Source: a virus
Length of the DNA stretch: 44,102 nt
Virus genome (UHGV): UHGV-0016039
Direction: 5' to 3' (one strand)
Shown one piece after another: positions 21 to 41,077 of this stretch. Numbering within the stretch: position 1 is the first letter of the stretch; every line of letters begins with the position of its first letter. The position numbers and the translations under genes are program-made. The notes under the pieces are model-generated. The model was given only the letters and a program-made list of their open reading frames with translations. It ran no database searches and was not told where the DNA came from.

Positions 21-50
21 TTGACACCCATCCTGCAACCAATCTATCAT
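21..50 (+). promoter_or_regulatory. sigma70-like promoter (TTGACA-18bp-TATCAT); spacer contains TGCAACCAAT motif
   Basis: TTGACA at 21-26, TATCAT at 45-50, 18 bp spacer; upstream T9 run at 1-9. Confidence 0.5.
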
Positions 51-4020: not shown

Positions 4021-6308
4021 AAGACTTCGAACGCCTATTTCTCGACACAGAGACATTCAGCGATGTGGACCTGAAGAAAGTCGGCGCTTACGCCTACGCA
4101 GAACACCCGTCAACCGAGATTATGATTTGCACCTACGCCATCGACGAGGGCCGCGTGCAGACATGGGACGCCACTGAATCCCCCACGATGCCGCGTGAAC
4201 TACGCAAGGCGCTCCGCCATGTAACCCGCAAAAAAGCAAAAATAGTGATGGCGAACGGCCTCCTGTTTGACCGCCTGGTTATCCGTGAAAAGTGGGGCAT
4301 TGACCTGCCGGTAAGCCAGATCGAAGATACCATGATTATGGCCTTCCGACATGCGCTGCCGGGTGGCCTTGATATGCAATGCCAGGTGCTGGGCGTGGAC
4401 GCAGAGCACGCGAAGGATAAGGCGGGCAAGGCGCTGATTAAACGATTCTGTAAGCCTACCCCTAAGACCTACAAAATCCGCCGCTACACGCGCGAGACTC
4501 ACCCGGAAGAATGGGCTAAATTCCTGCGCTATGCCGCGCTGGATACTATCGCAATGCGTGAAGTCTACTGGCGCATACCGGACTGGGGCAACTCCCCGAA
4601 GGAAGACGAAATCCTGCTTATCGACCAGTTGATTAACGACCGCGGTTTCTATGTGGACGTTGACCTAGCTAACGCCGCGATCAAGGCGGTGCAGGTGCAT
4701 AAAGAAGAATTGAAGGAAGAAGCCTGGGAGCGTTTTGGCGGTAAGCTAACCGGCAACGACTTCCTGCCAATCCTGCGTGATATCGCCCCTGCGTTCACTA
4801 TTCACAACGCGCAGAAATCAACGCTGAATGACTTGCTGGAAGACCCAGACTTCCCCGACGAGGGCAAGGTGCTCATTGAGATGCGCCTCGGTGCGTCATC
4901 AACGGCATCGACTAAGTACAATCCGCTCGTCAATGGCCTGTCCGCCGATGGTCGCCGCCGTGGTTGTCTTCAGTATGGTGGGGCAAAGCGCACGCTACGC
5001 TGGGCCGGTAAAGGCTTTCAACCTCAAAACCTGGCGCGTGGCGAGTACAGCGACGACCACGAAGGGAAGATTAAACGCCGCGAGGGTGAAAGCGACGTCT
5101 CGTTTTGGGTCCGGTCGCACATGCTCACCAACGGCATCAACTCCCTGTTACGCGGGACCGCACACTGGGCGTATGACATATCGAAGCTAACGGCATCGAC
5201 CGTTCGCGGGTGCATTATTCCTGCGAAGGGTAAGAAGTTTGTCGTAGCGGACTACTCCAACGTGGAAGGGCGTGGCCTTGCCTGGATCGCTGGCGAGAAA
5301 ACAGCGCTCATGGTGTTTAAGGCCGGTCGCGATATCTATTGTGAGACTGCCGGTAAGATGTTCGGCCTGGACCCGGACTACATTAAAGCCAACCGCAAGG
5401 ACTTACGCCAGATCGGTAAGGCGTGCGAATTGGGACTGGGCTATGGTGGCGGCGTCGCGGCGTTCTTGCAGTTCGCTAAAAACCTGGGCCTCGACCTTTA
5501 CACTATGGCGGACGTGATGAAAGGCACGTTCCCGGATCACATTTGGGCGGCGGCGAAACGTGGTTATGAGTACGCTCGCATTAACGAAGCGAAGCGCCCG
5601 CCGAAGCCGGGCAAGAAGGACGAGCGCCCAACATACATACTGCCGAAAAACGTATGGCTTACTTGTGACGCAATCAAACGTATGTGGCGTGAGGCTCACC
5701 CGAAGACGGTAGCCTTTTGGGCCGAGCTTGAGGACGCTGTGTTGTGTGCAATCCGCAATCCGGGCAAAGCATACTGGGCTGGCGCGAACGTTCGCCCGGA
5801 CGGTAGAAAAGCGCTCAAGATTGTCCGTACGAAGGCGAAGCACGACCCAACCTTTGACGAGGAGCGCGACGACCCGAACGCCGCGGGGTGGTGGTTGAAA
5901 ATTGAGTTGCCGTCGGGGCGCATCATGAGCTACCCCGGCATCGCGCTGTCTGTCACGACCGAGATTGACGAAGACACCGGCAAGAAGCGCACCAGCACAC
6001 GCATTAAATATCAGGGCGAGAATCAGACGACGCGCCAGTGGGGATTCCAGTATACCTACGGCGGCAAACTGACGGAGAACATCGTACAGGCGTTGTGCCG
6101 CGATATTCTCGCATGGTCCATGCCTGGCGTTGAAGCTGCGGGGTATAAAATCGTCCTGTCGGTGCATGATGAATTGATCACAGAAGTGCCGGACACCGAC
6201 GACTACACTACCGAGGAACTTTGCGCGCTGATGTGCGACCTGCCTATTTGGGCGAAGGGCTTCCCACTTGCCGCCGAAGGCGACATCATGTACAGGTACA
6301 GGAAGTAA
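4017..6308 (+). CDS. DNA polymerase, family A, with 3'-5' exonuclease domain
   Basis: N-terminal LFLDTETFS exo motif; RQIGKACELGLGYGGG (motif B K...YG); VHDELITEV (motif C). Confidence 0.92.
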   Translation: MKDFERLFLDTETFSDVDLKKVGAYAYAEHPSTEIMICTYAIDEGRVQTWDATESPTMPRELRKALRHVTRKKAKIVMANGLLFDRLVIREKWGIDLPVSQIEDTMIMAFRHALPGGLDMQCQVLGVDAEHAKDKAGKALIKRFCKPTPKTYKIRRYTRETHPEEWAKFLRYAALDTIAMREVYWRIPDWGNSPKEDEILLIDQLINDRGFYVDVDLANAAIKAVQVHKEELKEEAWERFGGKLTGNDFLPILRDIAPAFTIHNAQKSTLNDLLEDPDFPDEGKVLIEMRLGASSTASTKYNPLVNGLSADGRRRGCLQYGGAKRTLRWAGKGFQPQNLARGEYSDDHEGKIKRREGESDVSFWVRSHMLTNGINSLLRGTAHWAYDISKLTASTVRGCIIPAKGKKFVVADYSNVEGRGLAWIAGEKTALMVFKAGRDIYCETAGKMFGLDPDYIKANRKDLRQIGKACELGLGYGGGVAAFLQFAKNLGLDLYTMADVMKGTFPDHIWAAAKRGYEYARINEAKRPPKPGKKDERPTYILPKNVWLTCDAIKRMWREAHPKTVAFWAELEDAVLCAIRNPGKAYWAGANVRPDGRKALKIVRTKAKHDPTFDEERDDPNAAGWWLKIELPSGRIMSYPGIALSVTTEIDEDTGKKRTSTRIKYQGENQTTRQWGFQYTYGGKLTENIVQALCRDILAWSMPGVEAAGYKIVLSVHDELITEVPDTDDYTTEELCALMCDLPIWAKGFPLAAEGDIMYRYRK

Positions 6309-6586
6309 TGACACCAGAAGGCAAGATTCAAAGTCACCTGATGAAACGGGTGAAAGAGGTCGGCGGATTCTGCCGCAAACTGGCATGGGAGGGACGCGCA
6401 GGTGCGCCCGACCTGATTATCATAATCAACGGCATCATAGTATTCGTCGAAGTGAAGCGCCCCGGAGGAAAACCGAAGCCACACCAGGTACGTGAGCATG
6501 AGCGAATGGTCCGCCGCGGTGCTGACGTTCGCGTCATCGACAACATATCCGACTGCGATTTATTGGTTGCTGAATTGGTCGCATAG
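6308..6586 (+). CDS. VRR-NUC domain nuclease
   Basis: ATG 6308 overlaps PolA stop (TAATG); GAPDLIII..VFVEVKRPGGKPKPHQ motif. Confidence 0.7.
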   Translation: MTPEGKIQSHLMKRVKEVGGFCRKLAWEGRAGAPDLIIIINGIIVFVEVKRPGGKPKPHQVREHERMVRRGADVRVIDNISDCDLLVAELVA

Positions 6587-9827: not shown

Positions 9828-10286
9828 GTGAAAATTTTACAAGAAGAGAAAAATTACGGGGCCGCGCAATGCCTCGAAGCCCGCGAACAGGCCGAACGCG
9901 CGAACGCGCTGGCGGACACCTACCTGGCGAGCTATGAAGGCGAGGAGAAGGCGCGCAAGGAATTAGAGGAGCGCTTCGATCTGCTGTATGAGTTGATGGG
10001 TATTATGCAGCGCACCGGATACACCACCACCGTCGCGCTAAACCGCATCACTGCCGAAGGTCTGCGCGAGCATTGCAAACGTGCCGAGGCGTACGTGCGC
10101 CCCAAAGGTCACCAGTCTAAGATCGACCGGAAAGACCTGGTGCTTATGGCGTGGCGCGCAAACGGTAGCTACTACTCCGATTGCCGACCGCTTAGCGTCG
10201 AGGGGGGAAAGCGCCTGCAACGCGTTCTAAACAGTGGTAAGAAAATTGCCCTGTACGCGATAGATCAAGACCATGCAGAAGAGTGA
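9828..10286 (+). CDS. hypothetical protein (152 aa), helical/coiled-coil N-terminus
   Basis: ORF track; GTG start directly after upstream stop. Confidence 0.4.
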   Translation: MKILQEEKNYGAAQCLEAREQAERANALADTYLASYEGEEKARKELEERFDLLYELMGIMQRTGYTTTVALNRITAEGLREHCKRAEAYVRPKGHQSKIDRKDLVLMAWRANGSYYSDCRPLSVEGGKRLQRVLNSGKKIALYAIDQDHAEE

Positions 10287-10963: not shown

Positions 10964-11430
10964 AATTACTGATTTGCGATTTGGATGGCGTTATTAATGG
11001 TTCAAGCGATGCGCGTGCCGACCTGGTTCCGGGCATAAAAACAAAATCCACCTTCTGGGCGAAGTGGCACAAAGCGCACGTCCGCGAAGACCTGAACATG
11101 GATATGCTGCCGCTGTTGCGCATGTACAAAGAGCAAGGCTTCGAGATCGCGTATCTGACAAACCGGCAGCTAGAATGTTGGGACACCACCGCCGAGCAAT
11201 TGGAGGTCTTCCCGGTAGGCAGGTTATTCATGCGCCACATGCTGGACGACACCCCGCCGCCAGAGTTTAAAGCGTGCGCTGTGTTCAAAATGGTCTGCTA
11301 TGCGGACGTATCGGAACTGGTCATCATTGAAGACTGTCCGAAGAACATCGCGGCAATTCGTCGGGCGTGCAGCGATTTAATCCCGAAAATTTACGCAATA
11401 AACGTTGCAAAATTTACTTGCAACCAATAG
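10960..11430 (+). CDS. HAD-superfamily phosphatase-like protein (possible nucleotidase)
   Basis: motif I LICDLDGVI, motif II AYLTNR, acidic motif IIEDC. Confidence 0.6.
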   Translation: MKLLICDLDGVINGSSDARADLVPGIKTKSTFWAKWHKAHVREDLNMDMLPLLRMYKEQGFEIAYLTNRQLECWDTTAEQLEVFPVGRLFMRHMLDDTPPPEFKACAVFKMVCYADVSELVIIEDCPKNIAAIRRACSDLIPKIYAINVAKFTCNQ

Positions 11431-11441
11431 GTTGGTTGCAG
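11418..11441 (+). promoter_or_regulatory. perfect 10-bp inverted repeat TTGCAACCAA-tagg-TTGGTTGCAg (candidate operator/promoter element)
   Basis: palindrome read directly from sequence, 50 bp upstream of ATG 11493. Confidence 0.45.
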
Positions 11442-14496: not shown

Positions 14497-14727
14497 ATGA
14501 AAACTTTAATCAAATCTGCAATCATTGCCGTGGTGGTGAGTATGGCCGTTGGTTGCTCTTCTGGCCCGCGTCCGGACGGTTGGTGCGCGACACAAGCAAG
14601 CGGCGTATGTGTAGCTAAATGGAAAGGCGGTGTCGTTGTTCCGGCGGGTGAGGTTGATATCCGTTATGACGGTATTAAAGGGCATAGCGGATCGGTTCGT
14701 GATTATGGGTCCAGGGAGTGGAACTAA
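14497..14727 (+). CDS. small lipoprotein (signal peptide plus lipobox AVGC, 4 Cys); candidate Llp/Cor-like superinfection-exclusion protein
   Basis: [22 protein letters not shown]; AGGAG 8 nt upstream of ATG 14497. Confidence 0.7.
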
Positions 14728-28500: not shown

Positions 28501-29595
28501 TTAAGACGCGGTGGTCGCAGTCAGCGTAACCAGTACGCCCGCCGTTTCCTTGATGTTACGGGTAGGCACTGCCTGCGCGGTCTGCGTACGGCGGCGGCCT
28601 TTAGTATCGCTATCGCCACCAACGTCCTGCACGGTTGCCGGTGCGTTGTCTACTTGGCCCTGGTCCAGTTCCCAGTTAGCGGAAGTGGTGATATCGTCCA
28701 GTTTGAACGAGCGAATACCTTCGACCGGAGTACGAGCGGACGCCTTCAGACGATAGCCTTTAACAGCCACGTTGAAGTCGAACTCGCCCTGCCACCAGCG
28801 CTCAATGTTCTCGTTACCGCCTTTTTCCTGCGCCAGCATATCAAGGCCGTTGGTGGTAACTGCAACCGCGCCAGGGACCAAGCCCAGCATTGTACCCGCG
28901 CCCATTGCATCGGCAGCGGCATCGGAGATAATGAAACGGCGGCCCAGGCCATCGCCCATTACCTGCAGATCGCCGATCGCGAATACCTGCTCGGCAGATG
29001 GAAGCGCCTGGTACGCGATGAAGTTGGCCCAGGTAACGCCGTCCATAAACCAGGATTTAATCAAAGACGCCTGATCGCCGAACTTGGAAGCCGCCAGCGG
29101 GAAGTCTGCCAGGGTCGGGAAGGTACGACCGCCAACTCCATCAACGCGCGCCGGTTGGGTGTATTTTGCCGCTGCGTTGCTCTCGATTGCCGCTTTACTT
29201 GCGCCGATACCCGCTTTCAGGTAGTGCAGCATAATCGCTTGAGTAGCCTGTGCCGCAATCTCAGCCGCAACGCTGTTAACGTTGGTTTCGATTTTAGCCA
29301 TCATAGCCTTAGTGATTGCTACCGGACCCACTTTCGCGGACAGGTTAACCGAGTTGGTCAGCATACGCGCCAGCACTTTTGCGGTCGCCGGAGTACCTAC
29401 GGGGGCGTAGGCGTTACGGTCGGTAACGAGGTTGGCGATCAAGCCTACGGACATTTTTTCTACAACGTCCTTCAGCACTTCACCCGTGCCGAGAACAACA
29501 GCGCCGTTAGCGGCAGCGTTGAACACGTTCAGGTTATCGGGAATCATTTGCGTAACCGCGGTGACGAGTTTACGCTGGAACACTGTTAAAGACAT
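28501..29595 (-). CDS. major capsid protein
   Basis: 364 aa; follows scaffold gene, strong terminator downstream; ATG 29595 with AGGA. Confidence 0.75.
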   Translation of the reverse strand: MSLTVFQRKLVTAVTQMIPDNLNVFNAAANGAVVLGTGEVLKDVVEKMSVGLIANLVTDRNAYAPVGTPATAKVLARMLTNSVNLSAKVGPVAITKAMMAKIETNVNSVAAEIAAQATQAIMLHYLKAGIGASKAAIESNAAAKYTQPARVDGVGGRTFPTLADFPLAASKFGDQASLIKSWFMDGVTWANFIAYQALPSAEQVFAIGDLQVMGDGLGRRFIISDAAADAMGAGTMLGLVPGAVAVTTNGLDMLAQEKGGNENIERWWQGEFDFNVAVKGYRLKASARTPVEGIRSFKLDDITTSANWELDQGQVDNAPATVQDVGGDSDTKGRRRTQTAQAVPTRNIKETAGVLVTLTATTAS

Positions 29596-29695
29596 ATCGA
29601 AATCCTTTGAGTTGTGAGCATTCGCCCAGTACCGTTAATGTTACCTTAGATTTACGCGCTCGCAAAATTGCCCGCTTTCGCGGGCAATGTGCTTA

Positions 29696-30394
29696 CTAGT
29701 CGCCCATTTTAGCGATGATTTCACCAGCCTGTTTCGTCAGATCGGTGATGCCGAAGCTGTGGCCCATAGAGATTTTCGACTTCACATCTTCGACGACCTG
29801 CGTCGGTTTGCTCGGCGCACCACCGGCTGGCGTGCCAGCCAGGACAGATGCAAAATCGGCGTTACTACGGAACTCTTTTTCCAGTTCTTCCATAGTAAGG
29901 GCGGACGGTTTGCCATCCTGCAAAACACGCACTTTCAAGCTGCCGTCTTCGCCGTCTTCCAGCGTCAGGCGGTCCATTACGTGGCGTTGCATGATTCCAG
30001 CATTCTTACCAAACAGCTTCGAGGCCAGGTCTTTGGCAGCGCTGCCGATGGTTAGGTCGTGGATCTGCTTGCGGTAGGCTTCGATTTTTCCCGATGTGTC
30101 TGCTTCGTGTTTTGCAAACTTATCTTTCCAGGACTTGTCGATCGCTTCGAGGTCGCCATTTTTGCGCGCAGCGGCTTCCTCTTTCTCTTTCGCAAGTCGC
30201 TCGGCTTCGGCGCGGCGTTCAGCTTCTGCTTTCTTCTCGCTCACCAGCTTCGCGTTGTTGTCTTTCAGACCCTTGATTTCCGCCTGTACTTCTTCTGCGG
30301 TCATGAAAGTTGATTTATACCCGTCGCCATCGGCAACAAAAAGCGCCTTCATACCTTCCGGCAACGCGTCATATTCTGCTTTAGTAAGTTTCAT
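29696..30394 (-). CDS. capsid scaffolding protein (coiled-coil)
   Basis: ATG 30394 preceded by AGGGGGA; charged helical sequence (KAEAERRAEAERLAKEKEEAAAR). Confidence 0.6.
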   Translation of the reverse strand: MKLTKAEYDALPEGMKALFVADGDGYKSTFMTAEEVQAEIKGLKDNNAKLVSEKKAEAERRAEAERLAKEKEEAAARKNGDLEAIDKSWKDKFAKHEADTSGKIEAYRKQIHDLTIGSAAKDLASKLFGKNAGIMQRHVMDRLTLEDGEDGSLKVRVLQDGKPSALTMEELEKEFRSNADFASVLAGTPAGGAPSKPTQVVEDVKSKISMGHSFGITDLTKQAGEIIAKMGD

Positions 30395-30484
30395 GCTATC
30401 CCCCTGGGATTGTGGCAGAGCAGGCCACCCGCTCGACTTCACGCTTCTAATATTATCAGCGATAAAAATAATCGCAAAATTCGC

Positions 30485-30513
30485 TTGCAATCCTCGTATT
30501 GGTTGCATATATT
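30485..30513 (+). promoter_or_regulatory. sigma70-like promoter TTGCAA-17bp-TATATT with two TTGGTTGCA elements
   Basis: TTGCAA 30485-30490, TATATT 30508-30513; TTGGTTGCA at 30499 and 30513. Confidence 0.5.
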
Positions 30514-30542
30514 GGTTGCACACCAACAACGAGGACACCCAA

Positions 30543-31307
30543 ATGAGACTGACTAAAGTCATTAAAAATCAGATTCTGGCTAACATCCTGCGCGACCACG
30601 AAATAGCGACCAAAGCCAAACTAATAATGATGGACTCGCGTGACTTGGCTTATGCCGTTACGATGGACTGTATGCCGGAAGGCATTCGCACGTTCGCAGC
30701 GCTCCGCGAGCATATCAAGACATTCAGCGGCGACCAGTCGCCGATGTACGGCGTCAGCGTCTACACCAACAAGGCAACATATAGATATGACTCAGGCCTC
30801 CCTAAAGGTATAGGCAGCGTTTATGACGCCACTTTCGAAATAAACGCAGGCGGTAATGTTCGTACCCTATCATTGAGTGGTGACGGTCGGAGATTCCGCC
30901 AACACCGCGGATACTGGGAGGACAAGTATATGAATAAGCTCGCACCGGATCTTAGCGATATTGTTCCTGGGTTTGAAGAAGTTTTGCTGGCGTCAGTGTG
31001 CGAAGTGGACGAGGACGGGAAAGCGTTGCCGATATATCTTCCACGCGGTCGCGCAGATTACCCGGCGGACCATGATTTTTGTAAGCGCCTGGACTGTAAC
31101 GATAAGGCCCGCCGGGAGTTGCGTGCTAAGTATGACGCGTTCAAGTTGACCGTTACCGGTGTGCTGGACCTGCACAATACTGACAAGAAGCTGATTAAGG
31201 CATGGCCTGAAGTTGAGCAATTCATCCCTTACCCGGACAAGCCAAAATCCACGGCGGTGGCGCTGGATGTGAAAACTCTCAACGAGATTTGCGGTATTCC
31301 GCGCTAA
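30543..31307 (+). CDS. hypothetical protein (254 aa) encoded opposite to the flanking head genes (moron-like)
   Basis: ATG 30543 preceded by GAGGA; own promoter upstream and terminator downstream. Confidence 0.6.
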   Translation: MRLTKVIKNQILANILRDHEIATKAKLIMMDSRDLAYAVTMDCMPEGIRTFAALREHIKTFSGDQSPMYGVSVYTNKATYRYDSGLPKGIGSVYDATFEINAGGNVRTLSLSGDGRRFRQHRGYWEDKYMNKLAPDLSDIVPGFEEVLLASVCEVDEDGKALPIYLPRGRADYPADHDFCKRLDCNDKARRELRAKYDAFKLTVTGVLDLHNTDKKLIKAWPEVEQFIPYPDKPKSTAVALDVKTLNEICGIPR

Positions 31308-31309
31308 CG

Positions 31310-31335
31310 AAAAAGGGGCCATTACGGCCCCTTAA
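31310..31335. terminator. bidirectional rho-independent terminator
   Basis: aaaa-aggggcc-atta-cggcccct. Confidence 0.6.
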
Positions 31336-31552
31336 TTATTTGCTGCAACTCCAGGACCTGCGCCCTCAGCTTTGCCCCGCATTCCATATTTTTCACGTCA
31401 ACCATCAAATCCTCGTCGGGGTCTGAGGACGGGTTATCGAACTTGCACGGCGGTCGCAGCGCCGACTCCGTTAGCGGCATCAACGGCGCGTTGCTTGATC
31501 CGCACGCGCTCAGCATCAAAACTACAATCAGGGCGGTTAGGGCGCGTAACAT
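31322..31552 (-). CDS. outer-membrane spanin lipoprotein (Rz1-like), overlapped with Rz
   Basis: MLRALTALIVVLMLSACGSS signal peptide/lipobox, Pro-rich, C-terminal Cys; AGAGG upstream of ATG 31552. Confidence 0.6.
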   Translation of the reverse strand: MLRALTALIVVLMLSACGSSNAPLMPLTESALRPPCKFDNPSSDPDEDLMVDVKNMECGAKLRAQVLELQQIIKGP

Positions 31553-31763
31553 ATTTAACAACCTCTTTCGTGATAGTCCGGTATTCTACGTCGCGGGCCT
31601 GTTCGGCCTGCACGGAGCGCTCAACAACTTTAGTTTGCTGCCGTTGGGCTTGGGCTTGGGCTTCTTGCGCCGCCTCCGCCACTACGCCAGCGCGATAGGA
31701 GTCACCCAGCCAGAATCCCACCGCCAGACCGATAACCAGTCCAATCGCTGCATATTTAATCAC
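31434..31763 (-). CDS. inner-membrane spanin (Rz-like), N-terminal TM plus coiled coil
   Basis: YAAIGLVIGLAVGFWLG TM then AQEAQAQAQRQQ coiled coil; GTG start 31763 assumed (ORF track starts at TTG 31793). Confidence 0.55.
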   Translation of the reverse strand: MIKYAAIGLVIGLAVGFWLGDSYRAGVVAEAAQEAQAQAQRQQTKVVERSVQAEQARDVEYRTITKEVVKYVTRPNRPDCSFDAERVRIKQRAVDAANGVGAATAVQVR

Positions 31764-32859
31764 GCCATAACCCCCGGTTTTTAAGCTGTGCAATAGTCAT
31801 CAGTTCGCCAGAATCGGTAAACATCTTCGGCACTTTCACGCCGCGCATAATCTGGTCGGCGCGTTGCACTCCATATAATTCCTCCAGGATATGGCGCGGC
31901 TGGCGCTGTACCCATGAGAAGAAATCCGTCTGCGCGTCGACCTGCTCACTCAGCAATCTGCCTGCGTCGGCCTTCAGTGCCGGACGCTTACCACTGGGCC
32001 AATCTTCCATACCTTTGACTTTCCACGTCTCCGTCGAGCGGCAGCAATAATGTAGCTTGCCCGGACCAGCGCCATATTGTGATCCCGCCACCACTTTTCC
32101 GCCTCGCTTCCCTTTCGTATCGGGAGTAACATCAACCGGATAAAACAGGCGATCGCGTAGCTGGCACATGGGAGAAGTATGCGTGTCCAATGTAGATAAC
32201 CATTGGCGACCTTCGAGAATATCGTCATTTGCTTTTACCATTAGTTCGCGGGCGGTCGCCGCATAGTGGTTGACTGCGGACTTAACAACGCTTGAGATGG
32301 CTTGCGCACTACGACCGCCTAGCGCGCGCCTCACGTCCGCGATAATTTCCATCGTTGGCTTGCCCTGGATGAATCCTGCGCGCACCTGATTGCCGATCTG
32401 CGTCCTGGTCCACTCAGAAAGTGAGTCAGGCCATTGCATCATCGTATTACCCTGGAACGGGTTTTTCATTGCCGTCGCTGCGATCTGCGCACCTGTCACT
32501 ACGCCAACCACCTCGACCGCCGGTACGGCGACCACCGGCTGGATCGCTGCCGTTAATGTGTCGGCGAGATAATCGGCCTCGGTGTCGGCAAACTCCTGAA
32601 GGCTTTCCGCCAGTACCTTAAACTCGGTGCGCAGTTCCGTTTTTACGGTCTTGTCGAGTTGCGTTAACAACGTGGTAAGTGCCTTGTTGTTCATGGACTT
32701 TTTTCCATCAAGTAACTCGGTCAGCTTACCCAGTAACGTGGGCCGGAACTTCTCCCACATAGCCAGCACCCTCCGCGCCTGGTCATTACTCAGGCGCTGG
32801 GTGAAGATGTGACGGCGAATCATTCGATCCGCCATATATTGATTAATTGTCTTCGCCAT
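31756..32859 (-). CDS. head morphogenesis protein (Mu F / SPP1 gp7-like)
   Basis: position directly downstream of portal; 367 aa. Confidence 0.65.
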   Translation of the reverse strand: MAKTINQYMADRMIRRHIFTQRLSNDQARRVLAMWEKFRPTLLGKLTELLDGKKSMNNKALTTLLTQLDKTVKTELRTEFKVLAESLQEFADTEADYLADTLTAAIQPVVAVPAVEVVGVVTGAQIAATAMKNPFQGNTMMQWPDSLSEWTRTQIGNQVRAGFIQGKPTMEIIADVRRALGGRSAQAISSVVKSAVNHYAATARELMVKANDDILEGRQWLSTLDTHTSPMCQLRDRLFYPVDVTPDTKGKRGGKVVAGSQYGAGPGKLHYCCRSTETWKVKGMEDWPSGKRPALKADAGRLLSEQVDAQTDFFSWVQRQPRHILEELYGVQRADQIMRGVKVPKMFTDSGELMTIAQLKNRGLWRD

Positions 32860-40889: not shown

Positions 40890-40918
40890 AATATAGCCAG
40901 GTGCCAGGCTGAATGCAA
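40890..40918 (-). promoter_or_regulatory. sigma70-like promoter TTGCAT-17bp-TATATT (- strand) with overlapping palindrome ATTGGT-gtgc-AACCAAT
   Basis: rc of 40913-40918 is TTGCAT, rc of 40890-40895 is TATATT; palindrome 40875-40894. Confidence 0.5.
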
Positions 40919-41077
40919 CCAATATTAATCACGCGTATGAAAAAGTTGATCGCTATCTGCTGAATCTGCAAACCGCATTTTTCACTTTCCATTCTGCAAC
41001 TCGCATTGGTTGCCGAGTTCATCGACGACCGCAATTTGCATCATGTTGCCGTGCGGTATGCAATCCTGGATTTTATG

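Follow-up and report, generated by a model that had tools for sequence, protein, structure and literature searches.

The nmad5 gene and its published orthologue

We studied a plus-strand gene and its control elements at positions 30485-31335 of the virus genome UHGV-0016039, which was analysed as a single stretch of 44,102 nucleotides (nt; hereafter the window). The gene, nmad5, spans 30543-31307 (+), i.e., 254 amino acids (aa) plus a TAA stop codon. Its flanks are found on the minus strand: the scaffold gene is divergent from nmad5, and the spanin, MuF and portal genes are convergent with it. The source genome is a Dhillonvirus, i.e., an HK578-like virulent siphophage of Escherichia coli. Here, the 3-kb stretch around the gene matches 159 phage records, nearly all of them HK578-like siphophages (Dhillonvirus) of Escherichia or Shigella, and the best match over this stretch is phage NHEP3 (95.9% identity). 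Phages Bas84 and YD-2008.s are annotated with a major head protein, scaffold, o- and i-spanin, a MuF-type head morphogenesis protein, portal and terminase as the minus-strand neighbours, and their 254-aa plus-strand gene between scaffold and spanin is labelled 'hypothetical protein'.

An initial annotation, made from the letters alone, had proposed this reading frame as a gene antisense to the surrounding scaffold, spanin, MuF and portal genes and had reported no recognisable motif in its product. Gene and orientation are borne out; the protein, however, can be assigned to a family. Over its full length it belongs to Pfam PF18757 (Nucleotide modification associated domain 5, Nmad5), matched with an E-value of 4e-56 and 190.7 bits (gathering cut-off 27 bits) such that residues 1-253 cover positions 1-206 of the 206 model positions. 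It also matches phrog_1965 (function unknown; E-value 3e-58) and carries the signature of the family, i.e., an N-terminal MxRLT, a central GG, TTxKKLxxWPE and a C-terminal LNxxCG[LI]P. Across 13 Dhillonvirus genomes, the ratio of nonsynonymous to synonymous divergence (dN/dS) of the gene is 0.115, i.e., it is under purifying selection. The Nmad5 family is said to have been defined computationally by Iyer et al. in 2013 from phage DNA-modification gene neighbourhoods. The locus studied here lacks such a neighbourhood, being flanked by scaffold and spanin. Since homology is not defined by this contextual feature, the gene product remains a member of Nmad5.

Judged by sequence and position, the gene is the orthologue of nmad5 from the Dhillonvirus phages SM_A8 and SM_S22, in which the gene was studied by Yamashita et al. 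(2025, Commun Biol 8:290; PMC11846954). The SM_A8 gene (PP920553, coding sequence 5047-5811) encodes a protein with 86% identity to that of the window over 254 residues without gaps, and K216 as well as the surrounding HNTDKKLIKAWPEV are identical in both. With regard to SM_S22 (PP627283), the window protein aligns to residues 81-334 of CDS0006, which is annotated with 334 aa. The locus with its scaffold and spanin flanks is common to Bas84, YD-2008.s, SM_A8 and SM_S22. The gene is already published and its family is curated, and no new element is uncovered.

In the published work, mutants escaping the bacterial defence system Tmn carried K216E (SM_A8) or K296E (SM_S22) in nmad5; reversion of the mutation brought Tmn sensitivity back and the engineered mutation resulted in escape (PMC11846954). 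A phage with deleted nmad5 was viable and still Tmn-sensitive, and cloning of nmad5 in E. coli failed, owing to toxicity in the authors' view (PMC11846954). Dispensability, toxicity and K216E escape are known for the SM_A8 and SM_S22 alleles only (PMC11846954). The K216 codon, i.e., the position of the K-to-E change in both phages, is located at 31188-31190 (+) of the window. Both names refer to one escape mutation since nmad5 of SM_S22 (5005-6009) is annotated with 80 surplus codons. The annotated start matches an in-frame ATG at position 30303 of the window, such that the annotation overlaps the opposite-strand scaffold gene by 206 nt and the extension holds the promoter and the ribosome-binding site. 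Escape mutants of SECphi4 were also searched for in the literature, and the passages mentioning SECphi4 hold no mention of nmad5.

Two longer frames of the window gene were considered, namely 403 aa from a GTG at 30096 and 334 aa from the ATG at 30303 of the SM_S22 annotation. We rejected both because the N-terminus MRLT is conserved in the family, the extension contains promoter and ribosome-binding site, and relatives insert other genes there. On these sequence grounds the 254-aa call is the correct one. An antisense open reading frame at 30993-31322 (109 aa) was set aside since the purifying selection in the nmad5 frame already explains the region. An Rfam search of 30200-31600 found no RNA family. 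The divergent intergenic region is flanked by a 15-nt inverted repeat (30380-30394 / 30543-30557, 87% complementary), which arises because the scaffold protein begins with MKLTK and Nmad5 with MRLTK; it may reflect chance or a common translation-initiation context.

Predicted control elements and exchangeable cargo of the cassette

The predicted sigma-70 promoter of the cassette is located at 30485-30513 (+) and combines a -35 hexamer TTGCAA (30485-30490) with a 17-nt spacer and a -10 hexamer TATATT (30508-30513). It is the sole sigma-70-like match of a consensus scan within 29500-32500, where the match count alone is not above chance (1 found vs. 2.3 expected). The promoter is therefore supported by its conservation across relatives and not by the single scan match: both hexamers and the downstream GGTTGCACACCAACA are kept in 13/13 Dhillonvirus genomes compared, as well as in the phages SO-1 and HK578. 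A Shine-Dalgarno sequence GAGGA at 30528-30532 (+), read from the sequence, follows 7 nt 5' of the ATG and is kept in relatives. The promoter and the strong ribosome-binding site of the initial annotation are thus both recovered.

Two direct copies of the phage-specific 11-mer TATTGGTTGCA are found at this promoter, the first within the spacer (30497-30507, +) and the second overlapping the -10 hexamer and the start region (30510-30520, +). The motif is enriched in the genome. Allowing for at most one mismatch, there are 11 sites in the window (0.81 expected) and 15 sites in Bas84 (0.79 expected). The sites of the window are positioned at 34-44(-), 6561, 9503/9520, 11419-11440, 14432, 30497/30510, 40350 and 40883/40914(-), i.e., almost every non-structural operon has such sites, in direct or inverted repeat, at its promoter. 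The operons comprise a Lar-like anti-restriction gene with a helicase, a putative anti-Tmn homologue with a methyltransferase, the gene that follows polynucleotide kinase, a Cor-like lipoprotein gene, the helicase-primase, and the operon that runs into the lysis genes. For the majority of the promoters, the TTGCA of TATTGGTTGCA is the -35 hexamer and is placed 63-66 nt 5' of the start codon (measured at 6561, 9520, 11430 and 14432; the upstream copy at 40924 by arithmetic from coordinates). The nmad5 -35 hexamer is in the same register with 64 nt before the ATG, counted from 6 nt upstream of TTGCA. An extra copy overlapping the -10/start region is observed for two promoters, namely those of nmad5 and at 40893. 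A sigma-54 reading of the TGG...TTGCA repeats was rejected by hand, given that the GG-to-GC spacing is 17 nt and not 12.

The copies at the nmad5 promoter look like an operator for a phage regulator, and genome-wide the motif probably serves both as -35 element and as operator for such a regulator. Candidate regulators are helix-turn-helix proteins of the phage, for instance a 109-aa protein that is encoded upstream of the helicase-primase gene and annotated as 'transposase'. Since the promoter motif is common to the non-structural operons, early expression of nmad5 is predicted. That is, we infer that nmad5 is co-regulated with early and middle genes and not with the surrounding late genes; by annotation, the early operons in question hold anti-restriction, exclusion and replication genes as well as the putative anti-Tmn homologue.

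Two of the genes in the operons with TATTGGTTGCA sites deserve a description. The lipoprotein gene at 14497-14727 (+) is driven by one TATTGGTTGCA promoter and is divergent from the tail-fibre gene. We call it Cor-like in view of the SM_A8 gene at the matching position, which is annotated as superinfection-exclusion protein Cor. It is followed by a membrane-protein gene marked 'moron' in Bas84, and the unit is another accessory one. The second gene, at 9828-10286 (+), encodes a 152-aa protein with 82% identity to SM_S22 CDS0035 and is labelled 'DNA ligase' in the pipeline annotations of relatives. We read its product as that of the published anti-Tmn gene ORF35 because CDS0035 is the only SM_S22 gene of that stretch missing from SM_A8. 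The window phage thus probably carries an anti-Tmn homologue; homologues of this gene often fail against the tested Tmn (PMC11846954).

The cassette ends with a hairpin terminator at 31313-31333 (both strands), located between the convergent nmad5 (+) and o-spanin (-) genes and overlapping the o-spanin stop codon (31322-31324). Its 8-bp G+C-rich stem has energies of -16.9 kcal/mol (plus strand) and -15.5 kcal/mol (minus strand), and the hairpin is scored as a terminator on both strands. The 13 Dhillonvirus genomes and SO-1 all keep this hairpin, with a compensatory change from A-T to G-C within its stem. Only the minus strand shows a U-run of canonical form (UUUUUCGUU); the plus-strand tail reads AAUUAUUU. 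The bidirectional terminator of the initial annotation is therefore sustained as a conserved hairpin but not as one with a canonical U-run in both directions. Bidirectional termination is plausible, with the minus direction looking stronger. The hairpin should thus be no less efficient on the late terminase-to-spanin transcript than on that of nmad5, and the late terminase-portal-MuF-spanin transcript probably ends here.

Given minus-strand termination at the hairpin, the scaffold and capsid genes would need a promoter of their own. A candidate for such a divergent promoter is found at 30450-30477 (-), with a -35 TTGCGA (30477-30472), a 16-nt spacer and an extended -10 TGaTAATAT (30458-30450). 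It scores 8/12, i.e., under the scan threshold, and the stretch is conserved in relatives; it lies within the 148-bp intergenic region, outside the cassette.

With regard to distribution, 157 phage records contain the portal gene. An Nmad5 homologue with at least 60% identity is present in about 150 records, and 146 (~93% of the 157) carry it at full length in this position. A distant relative encodes a 44%-identical Nmad5 homologue at the same position. The G+C content of nmad5 is 0.514 (vs. 0.545 for the window), and its third-position G+C of 0.59 equals that of the scaffold gene. Given this wide presence, the distant homologue in the same position and a G+C content that is not foreign, sequence comparison identifies nmad5 as a long-resident, near-core gene of the genus and not as a recent or sporadic insertion. 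Dhillonvirus sequence of about 89% identity, including nmad5, is also present in MG065648.1 (Campylobacter phage A144) and in an Acinetobacter-labelled record. Both are probably cases of contamination or wrong host assignment.

The cargo of the cassette varies among relatives. A variable slot lies between promoter and nmad5, which we read in a sample of 60 of the ~157 genomes. It is empty in the window, in Bas84 and in ~27/60 records; elsewhere it is filled with a 104-aa gene (phrog_24635, ~20/60), a 135-aa gene, a 170-aa clamp-like gene or a 53-aa gene. Some relatives have no full nmad5 at all. In HK578, the same promoter precedes the 135-aa gene as only cargo, and terminators are annotated on both strands between this gene and the spanin gene. 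SO-1 keeps this promoter together with the terminator, and the clamp-like gene is its sole cargo; a tblastn search for nmad5 in the whole SO-1 genome found none (best E-value 0.77). JLBYU27 also appears to hold just the clamp-like gene between these control elements, which were read directly in HK578 and SO-1, and a 74-aa nmad5 remnant is left in JL1. Relatives lacking the gene, which the initial annotation had suggested for comparison, thus exist.

The locus therefore behaves as an accessory (moron-like) cassette by sequence comparison, in which promoter and terminator are conserved and the cargo is exchangeable. This sets bounds on the autonomous insertion that had been proposed for it: the conserved control elements, the varying cargo and the deletable gene fit, and a recent origin does not, given ~146/157 records with nmad5 and the inconspicuous G+C content. 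The promoter-to-terminator slot provides natural nmad5-minus comparators (HK578, SO-1) and is a convenient site for phage engineering.

The clamp-like protein of the slot has 170-172 aa and is encoded in the records L016 (2259-3000) and L029 (Sodalis phage SO-1; 5082-5600) as well as in WF5505, 101114BS4 and JLBYU27. It resembles the C-terminal half of the beta sliding clamp (DVRYYLNG, DGHRL, GRFPDWRR and the C-terminal MPMRL). The name is based on a phrog_947 match (E-value 9e-9), a sub-threshold match to Pfam DNA_pol3_beta_2 and the C-terminal MPMRL; some records wrongly label the protein 'RusA-like resolvase'. It might be a clamp mimic or decoy.

Conservation, predicted fold and genomic context of Nmad5

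Within the genus, selection on nmad5 is uneven, with dN/dS of at most 0.03 at residues 181-240 and up to 0.42 at residues 46-75. Its overall nonsynonymous divergence of 0.059 exceeds the values for scaffold, MuF and capsid (0.008-0.014) by a factor of 4-8. For the family as a whole, we studied an alignment of 48 sequences. Here, L217 and N247 are invariant, G104, W221, P222, P229, L246 and G251 are found in at least 92%, and R2 and E223 in 90% of the sequences. That is, conservation is concentrated at the N-terminus (MxRLT) and in the last 80 residues, and the positions kept throughout the family are largely structural residues (L, W, P, G), besides a few polar ones. The escape residue K216 directly precedes the invariant L217. 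A set of 1.84 billion representative proteins contains ~376 clusters of the family (at 50% identity), and most of its members have 180-230 aa.

An AlphaFold2 model computed from 48 diverse homologues reached a predicted local distance difference test score (pLDDT) of 90 and a predicted template modelling score (pTM) of 0.83; an earlier model from 9 close homologues was discarded (pLDDT 54). Helices are predicted at the N-terminus (residues 5-17, 20-42 and 51-62) and at the C-terminus (178-209, 214-227 and 243-250), with a beta-rich domain at ~79-173. This layout suggests that the N- and C-terminal helices pack into a bundle with the beta-rich domain inserted between them. In BFVD, it matches eight predicted viral structures with E-values from 1e-28 to 2.5e-5; entries with a name are either Nmad5 members, C130_2 being one of them, or uncharacterised phage proteins such as those of eiAU and PhiJL001.

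Sequence and profile searches against the PDB returned nothing, and a comparison of the model with solved folds gave no match, i.e., no structural similarity to any enzyme. The remote homology and structure search that had been suggested for this gene thus yields the Nmad5 family but no solved fold. The PADLOC defence-system hidden Markov models (HMMs) matched the Nmad5 protein with 0 families at E<=1, and NCBIfam gave only a chance-level sigma-factor match (E-value 0.11).

The genomic context of Nmad5 differs widely between phages. In lambdoid phages, the gene directly follows the antiterminator N, with no modification genes nearby. In other phages, it adjoins a DNA polymerase, a helicase, a recombination gene or a pair of ParB and C5-methylase genes, and in one context it is found near an integrase. 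In M6-like phages, it resides inside a thymidine-hypermodification cluster beside the 5-hmdU DNA kinase: the neighbour in phi_M6 carries the helical domain of this kinase (E-value 8e-56) and is followed by a thymidylate-synthase-like gene. Adjacency to MuF/portal or scaffold genes is observed in three lineages, namely Dhillonvirus and the metagenomic L007-L009 and L026. The hosts of the phages carrying the family include Pseudomonas, Vibrio and Bordetella, in addition to metagenomic phages. A constant partner gene was sought among the Nmad5 neighbours of eight other phages; these neighbours show no mutual homology and belong to different Pfam families or none.

We also checked for genes of thymidine hypermodification in the complete genomes of Bas84, SO-1, SM_A8 and SM_S22, based on their annotation tables and not on an HMM scan of every open reading frame of the window. 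Neither a pyrimidine hydroxymethylase nor a 5-hmdU DNA kinase nor an aGPT-Pplase is annotated, and the only methyltransferases listed are of Dam-type and C5.

Possible roles of Nmad5 and comparison with known systems

The nmad5 gene sits in a conserved expression cassette with an early-type promoter, placed antisense between the scaffold and spanin genes, and we lean slightly towards the explanation below as a whole. Its mechanism we put forward tentatively and with more doubt than confidence: Nmad5 would be an early accessory factor that binds a partner from DNA metabolism or host takeover and not a stand-alone DNA-modifying enzyme. The protein would be produced early, in concert with those replication and host-interaction operons that bear the TATTGGTTGCA promoter motif, and would act by partner binding. 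Its working surface may be a strongly constrained module, which combines the N-terminal MRLT with residues ~180-254 (R2, T213, K216, L217, W221-P222-E223, N247). Engaging a host or phage partner of DNA metabolism would perturb the cell and could thus be toxic. The charge reversal at K216 may then result in an altered-specificity or dominant-negative form, which would block either the formation of the infection cue sensed by Tmn or Tmn itself. With such a form, a missense change would differ from a null.

This difference, observed for a missense in the most constrained module, is one reason for a non-enzymatic, partner-binding reading. Others are that neither an enzyme-like fold nor an obligatory partner enzyme is found, that Nmad5 occurs in phages without modification genes, and that the wildtype is apparently toxic. 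Several points weigh against it. The conserved polar set R2, T213, K216, E223 and N247 might just as well form a small catalytic or nucleotide-binding site, and the family is named for its association with DNA-modification genes. Furthermore, the published study treats Nmad5 as a modification enzyme, and the escape phenotype stems from one Tmn variant and two phages (PMC11846954). The failure to clone nmad5 speaks for toxicity only in an indirect way, the binding partner is hypothetical, and promoter, expression timing and terminator of the cassette are predictions.

The main rival, a true DNA- or nucleotide-modifying enzyme, seems unlikely to us; such an enzyme would mark the phage DNA or change a nucleotide pool, and its product would be sensed by Tmn and altered by K216E. 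The gene within the thymidine-hypermodification cluster of M6/SN1-like phages speaks for it, and the polar residues listed above, K216 among them, could form its active site. However, deletion of nmad5 gives no Tmn escape, which is hard to fit with Tmn sensing an Nmad5 product (PMC11846954). Annotations of Dhillonvirus genomes list neither a hydroxymethylase nor a 5-hmdU kinase or aGPT-Pplase gene, the lambdoid phages carry Nmad5 after N without modification genes nearby, and the model has no similarity to any enzyme structure.

Less likely again is a dedicated anti-defence protein engaged in an arms race, which would naturally target a Tmn-like or other defence system and whose range K216E would extend to the tested Tmn. 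The swap-cassette with its variable accessory genes, the deletability of nmad5 and its natural absence from some relatives would fit such a role, as would the 4-8 times higher nonsynonymous divergence relative to the flanking head genes and the variable patch at residues 46-75. In lambdoid phages, Nmad5 is in the pL-operon position just after N, and the lambda pL region after N holds anti-restriction and host-takeover genes. Yet the escape residue is found in the most conserved and not in the variable part, the family is spread over Pseudomonas, Vibrio, Bordetella and metagenomic phages, and toxicity is unusual for a simple inhibitor. Wildtype Nmad5 gives no protection against Tmn (PMC11846954). 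Of the host-interaction or anti-defence function that the initial annotation had suggested, the genetic link of nmad5 to Tmn stands, but only the K-to-E mutant, not the wildtype, protects.

That Nmad5 acts in head assembly or DNA packaging, as might be read from the position beside MuF, portal or scaffold genes in Dhillonvirus, L007-L009 and L026, is very improbable and largely refuted. Phage with the gene deleted is viable (PMC11846954), HK578 and SO-1 lack nmad5 by nature, and no product of the interval is found in the lysate (virion) proteome table of Dhillonvirus EE09 (PMC10673088). Nmad5 is thus no structural component conserved in all relatives. It is encoded on the opposite strand under an early-type promoter and is part of early operons in most other phages.

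A wider form of the accessory-factor reading is slightly more doubtful than the mechanism above. Here, Nmad5 would be a widespread early host-takeover or adaptor protein of an unseen fold, whose invariant N-/C-terminal module docks onto a conserved DNA-metabolism partner. Single substitutions in this module would re-wire sensing by abortive-infection systems such as Tmn, and the cassette would be a TATTGGTTGCA-controlled plug-in slot for replication-directed accessory genes. Such an adaptor is consistent with a truncated beta-sliding-clamp homologue as alternative cargo. We argue in any case that the label 'DNA modification enzyme' is unproven for Nmad5 since there is no fold match and no constant partner gene, since the family occurs in phages without modification genes, and since deletion differs from missense.

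Among known systems, SM_A8 and SM_S22 are the closest: nmad5 has the same position between scaffold and spanin genes, the strand layout is the same, and K216 is kept. SM_A8 differs from the window by the extra 104-aa gene between promoter and nmad5. Compared to the Nmad5 family as a whole, the full-length HMM match, the signature and the predicted fold, which is the same in other members, are shared. In contrast, the Dhillonvirus form is longer than typical members via extra residues in its central beta-domain, and it is without DNA-modification neighbours, sitting alone among late genes. The Nmad5 proteins of the Pseudomonas phages M6/SN1 are homologous in the C-terminal 80 residues (38-40% identity) and are co-transcribed with replication genes. 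Unlike in the annotated Dhillonvirus genomes, which list neither gene, Nmad5 of M6 is flanked by the 5-hmdU DNA kinase and a thymidylate-synthase-like hydroxymethylase.

A moron of tailed phages is an autonomous promoter-gene-terminator unit within a late operon. The cassette differs from this model in several respects. Dhillonviruses are virulent, such that there is no prophage expression; nmad5 is not foreign by G+C content and is retained in ~93% of the genus; and the promoter is of the phage's own early type and not imported. What it has in common with morons is a predicted promoter and terminator of its own, the placement on the opposite strand within the head cluster, a presence and cargo that are polymorphic among collinear relatives, and its dispensability (PMC11846954).

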